A stretch of 64,000 nucleotides of DNA from assembly GCA_964658305.1 (NCBI GenBank), contig OZ210884.1:5208001-5272000 (forward strand), read 5' to 3'. Positions 21,101-23,951 of the stretch are shown in pieces. Source of the stretch: Leptogorgia sarmentosa (lineage: Eukaryota). The notes beneath the pieces are model-generated. The model made no database searches, had not been told where the DNA came from, and was given only the letters and a program-made list of their open reading frames with translations. The translations under genes and the position numbers were made by a program. Position 1 is the first letter of the stretch, and each line of letters starts with the position of its first letter.

Positions 21101-23951
21101 TACTGTCGAAAACATGCAAAGCTTCAAATGCACAGTTTCAGTATTGTATGTGTTCTGCCAATTCAAGCGTTTTTTCTTTTTTTGTTCAGAATGTGTAAAA
21201 ATGAAAGACTATACGAGAGCGATTCAAACTATCCTTCAAGCAGCTAGTTCAAGCGGATACAAAATTTCTATCTCCTTAATAAAATTATACTCCAATAGTT
21301 AGCTTTTCCAATCAGTTATCAATAGGCGGGATGCAATACAAGTTCTTATAACGAAGAAAAAATAACATTGCATACCTTCGCAAGCTACTCCGTCACCAGT
21401 CCAGCCAGATACACAGGCACATGTGAATGATCCCTCAGTGTTTGTGCAAGTGGCCTCTCCAGCTACGTCGCAGTTGTTATTTCCCGAACATTCGTCAATA
21501 TCTAAAAATGAAAATAAAATAAACAATTGTTGGGCAATTTGGAGCAAAATATCGTGATTTTCCGGTTAAATAATCAATAAAATTGAGTAACTAATAAACT
21601 GAAAAACAACGTTTGTCATTTAATATGTATTCTTCTTCCTGATTGGTCAGAGGGACCTTCCTGATTGGCCTGAAAGAATCCTAATTCTCAATTTTTGCTG
21701 TTCATTACGTAGTTAACGCCGATGAAGTGCTCAGCTAGCGTCTAAGTAATCGGAGTTTTTTATCGAACTTGCATCTAAAAAACAATGATTGTTCTCTCTC
21801 GTTCGCAAGCAAAACGGTTCACGGTAGATTTTATTCTTTAAAATGCTTTTAAAATGCGTGATGCTCTCATGATCTCATCATGCTTTGCAGGGTTAGTATA
21901 GGTTTGGAGCCTGGAATGCCGAAAGATCGATAATTGCGGGTGCAGATATTCATATATTCGGGTTTACAGACCATAAATAAGTACAATTGATTTCAAAGTA
22001 AATTAATAACGCTGAACACGAATATATGAATATCTGCACGCGCAATTATCGATCTTCCGGCATCCCTGTTTGGAGCTCATGGTTTGCAAAAGGCAACATT
22101 TTTTCAATTCGCTGTAGATCAAAAGAGGACGATGGACGATCATTCCTTTTCGGTGATTATCAAAGGAATGTCGCATAAAGTGACACATCAAAATTCGCTG
22201 GGCTTCAGTAGTTCTGTTTTTTAGTAAGTAATCAAATCGATATCTTTCAACTGCTTTGAAAAGTCGTTATAAGCAGTTTACAGAACTATTCGTTCAACCT
22301 ATACTCACCTGTACAGTCCCTACCATAGCCACCTCCAAAAAAGCCATCCACACAGGCGCATGTAAATGATCCATCAGTGTTTGAACAGATAGCATTGACG
22401 TTACAGGTGTGGGTGCCAGTGGCACATTCGTTCTCATCTGTAACAATAATAAGTGACTTCATGCACTTGAGGTCAGCTGAATCGATGCCTTGTGGAGCAG
22501 ACACAAAATATAGCCAGAGCAGCGTTTCGAGCAGATATCCTATCCTAGTTTGTTCGTCGAAAACGTTAATTGGTCATATGCATGAAATACTTGCAAAAAG
22601 GATGTATTTGATTAATCACAGATTTTGTTTACATTTCCGTCCAAGCCAATGAAAAATTTCCCTGTGTATTAGACGAACTAATTTCAAAAAATAATTGACC
22701 ACACACCCCTCCGTTATGGACATGGTTGTACTTCAGAAGTCGTTATTTTTGAAAACAACTAGAAAATAATGCTTCACATTTACTATAGAAAGACAGCCAA
22801 TTTAAGTGTTTGAAAACTTTTATTCACATGCAATTAATATACTAACATGTAATACTTACCATCATCATTAAGAATGCGCACCAAAGCTACATCAGCGCCT
22901 GGTTGTGTGAGCACGGCATTACGTGGTGAAGTTATGGTTAGACGAAGTTGAAATGATTCGATTCCTTCGTCAATAGTATCACTCATTATTTCGATCTCAT
23001 GTGAGCAATCGTTACCAGAAGTTGTTACAAAAACCGAGATATTTCCACTTGCATAATCATCCCCTGCTGTTGCATAACCAGGCCATGTTTCTATATCCAT
23101 AGGTGTTATCCTTAAAAAGTAATATCATGATATCAATTTGAATGTAGAAATACATGCCTTAAAACTATTGGAGAGTGATAGCGGTATTTAGATTGGGAAA
23201 CTTTACAGTTTAAAGGGGGCAAACGATGATGTAGCTAATAATAATTATGTGCAAAAATGTGTACTTACGTTGCATTGATGCCTATCGCCGAAACAATATG
23301 TTCAGTGTCGAGACAAATTTGCAAATTTTGACCTTCGTTGCCGTAATAGATGGTCCGATCAAATCCAATCTCGGGATCTTTAAAATAATGCAAGTGATAA
23401 GCGCACAAGGTGCACATTGTCAAGACACCCTGATGTTAATAGAATGACTTCTGTCATGGTTGGATATTTTCGGTTCATTCAAGGGTTTATATGACCTCTG
23501 TGACTTAGGATAATGAATTACTCAGGGATTGTGTTTAAAGATTTTGTAAGATTCAGGTAGATTTTATATACATCAGGATTTTTTTCTGCCGCTATACGAT
23601 AGCGGCAGACTTGCCACAAGTCCGCCTCAGATATTCGGTATTCGGAGGGCACATTTTCCAGTCTACTGTCTAATTAATTATATTCTGGCGCGAAAATATG
23701 AATCCTCACACGTTCGTTAAATGATTTCATTTTTTTCTCCAACAATTGGTTTTTGTGATAGCTAATGCGCAAAACTGCATAATGCTGATTTACACATTCT
23801 GAACAATTAATCGAATTTCTGATAACCTGCAATTCTTTTCGGACAACAATTAGTGGTGCAAAATTCTCTTACCACCGCTCCCAAATGCTTTTATTTCCAC
23901 GAATACCAAGAATAAAGTCAGTAAATGCAGCCCCTTGAGCTTTCTCAACAT
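6171..23951 (-). CDS. Paralogue A: type-I membrane protein, signal peptide + Calx-beta + 21 Ca-binding-type EGF + SEA + EGF + TM + Tyr-rich tail (~1249 aa, 30 exons); fibrillin-like EGF/mucin-like SEA protein
   Basis: SP 23951-23873 ([26 protein letters not shown]); Calx-beta 23377-23269, 23110-22860; EGF 22437-22309, 21501-21376, 20815-20693, 20243-20121, 19690-19562, 19193-19059, 17469-17344, 16640-16518, 16377-16255, 15966-15844, 15548-15426, 15106-14984, 14686-14564, 14243-14121, 13818-13696, 13406-13284, 12986-12864, 12204-12082, 11783-11661, 10628-10512, 9474-9343; SEA 8957-8839, 8249-8179, 7734-7556 (SPGSIVVD); EGF 7155-7027; TM 6489-6387; tail 6264-6171 (...[17 protein letters not shown]). 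Exon sum 3750 nt, in frame. Confidence 0.88.
9532..10061. repeat. (TGTATA)n microsatellite grading into (TGTATG)n
   Basis: About 530 bp of hexamer repeat in an intron of A. Confidence 0.98.
11528..16380. repeat. Intragenic tandem array, ~0.83-0.87-kb unit with two EGF exons, ~5.5 copies
   Basis: Recurring aatgcatggtgttaattcaatat...cgtaccctggcag...gatatctgaaaattac...gatatctaaaatg blocks; alternating E(E/D)[11 protein letters not shown] and [13 protein letters not shown] exons. Confidence 0.92.
12267..12602. mobile_element. TTAA-targeting MITE (Kolobok- or piggyBac-like)
   Basis: TIR aggggcagtgtcaccattt; TTAA on both sides; empty site gaaagtatcttaactggcc in sister repeat units (e.g. ~14293-14310). 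Confidence 0.9.
16816..17278. mobile_element. Degenerate hairpin-type element with internal ~43-bp tandem repeat (paralogous copy ~36143-36605)
   Basis: aacaattattgaat...atttaataattgtt inverted repeat; cataattacgtcataat(g/a)tcgtat x~5 at 17005-17200; aaccaat near the end. Confidence 0.55.
17814..18553. mobile_element. TSD-less element with long terminal hairpin (GCCGAAGGC apex); A only
   Basis: Hairpin ~17820-17959; ggtccgta/tacggacc motifs and ccaatc near the far end; empty site gaaagatatgttgttac at 37141-37157. Confidence 0.8.
18627..18982. mobile_element. TIR element with nested hairpin-type fragment (paralogous copy ~37212-37566)
   Basis: ccaaggttgtagcgggcgctgttac ... gtaacagcgcacgctacaacttccttgg inverted ends. 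Confidence 0.6.
21911..22068. mobile_element. hAT-like MITE, 8-bp TSD (A only)
   Basis: Long imperfect TIRs (gatcgataattgcg..tgcagatattcatatattcg); TSD tttggagc; empty site near 43588. Confidence 0.85.

Follow-up and report, generated by a model that had tools for sequence, protein, structure and literature searches.

Clustered amino-acid differences between two tandem Calx-beta/EGF surface-protein genes of Leptogorgia sarmentosa may reflect selection under gene conversion

A and B, two copies in tandem of a gene predicted to encode a single-pass surface protein, differ in short patches of amino-acid change within the exons predicted to encode its membrane-distal end. We lean towards the reading that these patches are kept different by selection while gene conversion evens out much of the rest. 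The gene structure, a patchwork of non-coding divergence, a non-synonymous bias, intact cysteines, and the occurrence of both variant types in other samples were all observed. Selection is the likely cause of the bias, judging from sequence, and the evolutionary process itself is already known. Throughout, "the window" means the whole 64-kb stretch of DNA that was analysed.

Gene models and domain organization

The window has 35% GC and zero N, and three tandem minus-strand genes (A, B, and C) are predicted within it, with exons bounded by AG and GT and single open frames (Table 1). The Calx-beta domain is N-terminal and spread over two exons in both A and B, exon 2 corresponding to the C-terminal two-thirds of the domain. 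Pfam searches on single exons supported the calcium-binding EGF and Calx-beta assignments and gave weak support for SEA (E 0.002-0.09). Both A and B carry a G-S-I-V-V cleavage motif in the juxtamembrane SEA, with EGF on both sides. All three models have one hydrophobic segment followed by a 30-aa tail and a stop, unlike an adhesion GPCR (GAIN/GPS plus seven transmembrane helices). The tail (6264-6171) is rich in tyrosine and almost identical in A and B, and the tails of the models contain no ITIM- or ITAM-like motifs. We found no PTS mucin domain, with P/T/S content reaching at most 32% in any 50-aa stretch.

Table 1. Predicted genes, exons, and other compared features of the window.
Feature	Position	Strand	Description
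Gene A	23951-6171	-	30 exons, 1249 aa; predicted from sequence; signal peptide, Calx-beta, 21 EGF, SEA, EGF, transmembrane, short tail
Gene B	46874-26310	-	27 exons, 1133 aa; predicted from sequence; as gene A but 17 EGF, plus a possible additional EGF exon (27420-27304) ahead of the transmembrane exon
Gene C	62482-52902	-	20 exons, 795 aa; predicted; without Calx-beta exons, otherwise signal peptide, EGF, SEA, EGF, transmembrane
A signal-peptide exon	23873-23951	-	B counterpart 46874-46796; 4 differences, all non-synonymous; assigned by eye from hydrophobic stretch
A Calx-beta exon 1	23269-23377	-	B 44881-44773; 4 nt, 2 aa, 1 synonymous; no Pfam hit alone
A Calx-beta exon 2	22860-23110	-	PF03160, E 4e-7, profile 42-119 of 119
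B Calx-beta exon 2	44382-44632	-	PF03160, E 2e-5
A EGF1 exon	22309-22437	-	calcium-binding EGF; Pfam on single exon
B EGF1 exon	43823-43954	-	Pfam on single exon
A SEA exon 1	8839-8957	-	B 30326-30208
Intron between Calx-beta exons	23111-23268	-	9/140 = 6.4%, plus 2 indels; omitted from the original prediction
Intron between Calx-beta and EGF1	22438-22859	-	3.3% diverged
Part of intron following EGF1	22068-22308	-	23/225, or 15/195 away from gaps; 8-10%; omitted from the original prediction
Near-homogenised A/B tract	8186-12585	-	16/3722 non-coding sites differ
A/B unit junction	25874-25989		116 nt; no second copy in window, just a 19-nt chance-level match

The number of EGF repeats, and with it the length of the putative rod, differs through internal duplication that includes introns (16380-11527; 43594-38706): A has additional two-exon EGF units, and B has additional copies of the EGF2/3 unit. 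The extra EGF exon of B lies in a duplicated block (27941-27092) between the post-SEA EGF and transmembrane exons. This block is flanked by a direct repeat of about 250 nt (26834-27077 / 28076-28325), and the B frame is open both with and without the exon. Long simple-sequence tracts occupy the same intron position in both copies (A 9533-10063, B 30902-31444).

Gene C, which on the evidence of its sequence is an older paralogue of A and B, served as a control for the pattern expected of a distant paralogue. It begins with a short EGF-like exon, and some of its exons are near those of A/B (the post-SEA EGF exon, for example, is 3 nt from that of B); sequence comparison suggests that A and B may have exchanged with gene C too. 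Elsewhere in the window, an open frame at 3-422 with a GTF2I-like repeat (E 1e-8) is part of a neighbouring gene, and weak HMG-box hits occur at 1668-1889. Two insertions with inverted ends upstream of B, at 47855-48499 (47855-47990 / 48499-48368) and 52084-52646 (52084-52125 / 52646-52605), are likely small mobile elements.

Divergence of exons and introns between the two copies

The exon counts of the original prediction held on recounting. Calx-beta exon 2 differs between A and B at 17 nt, which give 14 amino-acid and 1.5 synonymous changes (pathway averaging), and EGF1 differs at 15 nt, with 11 amino-acid changes, 1.8 synonymous changes, and one in-frame codon indel. The clustering described for Calx-beta exon 2 was likewise borne out: 9 of its 17 changes fall inside one 30-nt window (p = 0.0008), and an 83-nt run is identical (p = 0.015). 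The changes form three patches, at 23094-23081, 22997-22969, and 22938-22911. Among 27 amino-acid changes, 11 alter charge. Cysteines account for none of the 35 amino-acid changes in EGF repeats (p = 0.0045), and exon indels between A and B are whole codons, so constraint was not simply lost. Differences are adjacent more often in exons (10 of 32) than in introns (13 of 176; p = 0.0005), which fits repeated hits but also multi-base mutation or import of patches. These pairwise sets, which rest on just two sequences, exclude A EGF4 and EGF10-15, for which there is no one-to-one partner in B. We set aside EGF3 (A 20815-20693; 15-17 nt and 9 aa different from B) as a third fast exon, since its B partner is ambiguous (p = 0.004 or 0.08 depending on pairing) and it has a 24-nt stretch in common with EGF1. 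This exact match between A EGF3 and A EGF1 possibly records an exchange between repeats.

The changes had been described as almost only non-synonymous. An excess is present, but it is modest and borderline, with dN/dS of 2.2-3.7 (p = 0.03-0.11 against 1). In pairwise codon models, omega over the whole span first described (22309-23377) was 2.2-2.75 (p = 0.06-0.11). For Calx-beta exon 2 and EGF1 taken together, omega was 2.7-3.7 (two-sided p = 0.03-0.08), with no exon significant alone. Omega was 0.60-0.66 in the proximal exons. The distal exons, which were chosen for testing after inspection, had an omega of 2.4-4.0 compared with 0.58-0.61 for the rest of the gene (p = 0.007-0.018), and their 95% interval extends down to 0.9-1.1. 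Multi-base mutations inflate such selection tests, according to bioRxiv 10.1101/165969, so isolated single-base changes were counted separately. Only 1 of 22 was synonymous, whereas the intron mutation spectrum predicts 24.5% (p = 0.017); over the full span the count was 2 of 24 (p = 0.040). Pairwise M1a/M2a comparisons gave p = 0.003 over the span and 7e-8 over the whole gene. We rejected them because patchy divergence confounds them and because the presence of five multi-hit codons is unremarkable (p = 0.07-0.39, allowing 0-10% doublets).

The claim that exons diverged faster than their introns was upheld in part. The two intron counts quoted for it were accurate (14/421 and 4/338 differences, or 3.3% and 1.2%), but two adjacent, more diverged introns had been omitted (Table 1), and compared with those neither Calx-beta exon 2 nor EGF1 is faster (p = 0.85 and 0.22). 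Pooling all four adjacent introns, which are themselves heterogeneous (p = 3e-6), gave p = 0.08 for Calx-beta exon 2 and p = 0.002 for EGF1. A beta-binomial baseline over 10 intron blocks gave p = 0.10 and p = 0.006, respectively. EGF1 is thus clearly above a fair intron baseline, and Calx-beta exon 2 is not. Calx-beta exon 1 was unremarkable, although it lies within the span first described. Over 27 blocks, non-coding divergence between A and B ranges from 0.2% to 10%, with a mean of 2.1%. Gene conversion or unequal exchange would be expected to leave such a patchwork; conversion is its likely cause, and the near-homogenised tract is likely, from its sequence, a recent conversion tract. Because gene conversion has probably acted between the copies, the intron comparison is confounded. 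SEA exon 1, inside the homogenised tract, has four differences, all non-synonymous (4/119 compared with 3/964 in flanking introns, p = 0.004), a peak noticed post hoc as one of 22 exon pairs. The effect is therefore not limited to the membrane-distal end.

Could ordinary young duplicates look like this? If this part of the gene is older and has escaped conversion, loosely constrained loop residues might have drifted there approximately neutrally, with few silent changes by chance. We consider this unlikely, while granting it several points. Omega for the whole gene is 1.07-1.20, the omega interval contains 1 in most fits, the two omitted introns match the exons in divergence, and the EGF1 positions that changed also vary, by eye, among the EGF repeats of the window. 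Drift accounts less well for EGF1 standing above the intron baseline (p = 0.004-0.006) though its cysteines cannot change, or for the shortage of synonymous changes among isolated differences (p = 0.017-0.040). It also fits poorly with contigs from another sequencing run (X1), in which A-type exons are unchanged (0 of 415 sites differ from A) while the intron differs (7 of 580 sites; p = 0.023). These data are best read as selection for amino-acid difference, and to that extent the positive selection first proposed survives; the omega interval, which reaches down to 0.9-1.1, and the confounded intron comparison weaken it.

Variant types in other samples and further alternatives

Part of the stretch is contained in 11 of the 16 sequencing runs listed, and four runs were examined as assembled contigs, which may be mosaics. 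Run X2 is possibly the window's own source. We used 40 of 103 variant rows, dropped two (22013 and 22376) as high-depth repeat or other-EGF signal, and classified 38. Among these rows, from four runs, 33 variants are the B letter and the remaining five are intronic, and the contigs show mostly two types. Three variants found in neither window copy, all in intron 22438-22859, are flanked by A-type sequence in X1 and by B-type sequence in X5 and X6. Taken with the X1 counts above and a partly recombined EGF1 contig in X5, described below, this suggests, as a hint from contigs that may be mosaics, two protein types that have been kept for a long time, with sequence exchanged both near and inside them and no ongoing runaway change.

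The same contigs bear on a rather less plausible reading than drift: a polymorphic recognition locus on which balancing selection acts, with the A-type and B-type heads as its alleles and shuffling of these between the copies. The A/B differences would then not be fixed between paralogues, and in the extreme case the tandem would be two haplotypes. Consistent with this, an A-like EGF1 contig in X5 shows four of the 25 A/B differences in its range, two of them B residues (22333 and 22339), and depth in X1 is uneven between A-type and B-type contigs (8.1 and 3.3). Calx contigs listed for X6 are all B-type, although contigs can document only presence and half of X6 was covered. The mean non-coding divergence would also suit alleles. 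However, the rows listed contain few new exon variants, unlike a many-allele locus, and a window with zero N and a unique 116-nt junction favour a real duplication.

Least plausible is the idea that short conversion tracts brought in the patches, with a more distantly related Calx-beta or EGF exon as donor. The strong clustering, the adjacent changes, and the 24-nt EGF1/EGF3 stretch, which covers one of 15 EGF1 differences, would fit it, but differences in the distal exons fall at codon positions 12/14/6 compared with 101/94/160 between A and C (p = 0.0045), no other Calx-beta exon occurs in the window, and the other 14 EGF1 differences have no match longer than 11 nt in its other EGF exons. 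The A/C comparison has an omega of 0.36 over 630 codons, with third-position differences making up 160 of 355, compared with 6 of 32 in the distal exons. Within the 64-kb window, this codon-position pattern disfavours conversion from a distant paralogue, which the original prediction had named as a way its pattern might be explained.

Position of the variable patches and comparison with known systems

The selected differences were first proposed to lie on a ligand-facing tip, and this part of the prediction fared poorly. The densest patch (22997-22969) presumably covers a Calx-beta strand and the acidic loop called EF. Going by Calx-beta topology, this loop is probably calcium-binding and probably lies at the end of the domain facing EGF1, not at the free tip. 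The patch at 23094-23081 is probably at the same domain end, and the outer end probably carries the third patch together with the changes in exon 1. With the densest patch in a putative calcium loop directed towards the next domain, and with a second, smaller peak in the membrane-proximal SEA exon 1, the variable surface, on that topology, probably consists of the junction between Calx-beta and EGF1 together with outer loops, extending beyond the tip alone.

Under selected divergence with gene conversion, repeated conversion would homogenise the tandem copies A and B, giving the patchwork of non-coding divergence, while selection would discard those conversions that erase the differences between heads. 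The calcium-stiffened EGF repeats may act as a rod that holds a Calx-beta/EGF1 head off the membrane, and a partner (self, gamete, or microbe) may read that head.

A divergence peak under gene conversion has a model in the human red/green opsins, as described in PMC3924837. Like A and B, these are tandem duplicates with introns evened by conversion and exon differences kept, and the divergence peak is read as the target of selection. The opsins differ in having measured function for key residues and cross-species trees, whereas A and B are a single pair whose flanking introns are not low in divergence throughout. Patchwork homogenisation of the opsin type is present in A and B, and an exonic peak over flanking introns was found for EGF1 and SEA exon 1 and not for Calx-beta exon 2.

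A and B resemble sponge aggregation factors (AFs), Hydractinia Alr2, and SEA mucins, apparently without belonging to any of them. PMC5400394 describes AFs as clustered Calx-beta genes with repeats that include introns, mostly phase-1 introns, and excess non-synonymous variation, which are likenesses. It also gives AFs many Calx-beta domains, encoded as three-exon modules, in addition to Wreath and VWA/VWD domains, whereas in A and B a single Calx-beta on two exons is combined with a long rod of EGF repeats, SEA, and a transmembrane segment. Each A/B model contained one Calx-beta and its other exons were assigned to EGF, SEA, or transmembrane. Hydractinia Alr1/Alr2 (PMC8282982) are type I membrane proteins in which positive selection acts on the N-terminal beta-sandwich, the region that varies most. 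The ectodomain of Alr proteins consists of tandem Ig-like domains, unlike that of A and B, where the exons match Calx-beta, EGF, and SEA; for Alr there are also 183 Alr2 sequences from one population and demonstrated homophilic binding. SEA-type transmembrane mucins such as MUC17 share an EGF-SEA-EGF-transmembrane base and a tandem cluster (PMC13643018), and the G-S-I-V-V motif of A and B adds to the likeness; they differ in their PTS domain, whose place in A and B is taken by the EGF rod and the Calx-beta head.

Using a SEA exon as a query, we found no relatives or orthologue (atlas best 0.86, SEA cluster 0.79). The domain combination was not found in print in literature searches, whose one listing was a zebrafish adhesion-GPCR survey, and this is weak evidence of novelty. 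We give little credence to the further idea that the cluster is an undescribed invertebrate recognition system in which Calx-beta/EGF heads stand on EGF rods of variable length, and in which swappable patches around the calcium loop and EGF1 set specificity and move by micro-conversion; its parts would differ from those of AFs, Alr, and mucins.

A clear caution from this comparison is that the introns of tandem duplicates make a poor neutral baseline. Should the signal of selection prove sound, some 27 residues of a surface receptor that has not been studied would be candidate specificity sites, and the A/B pair would be ready for binding tests.
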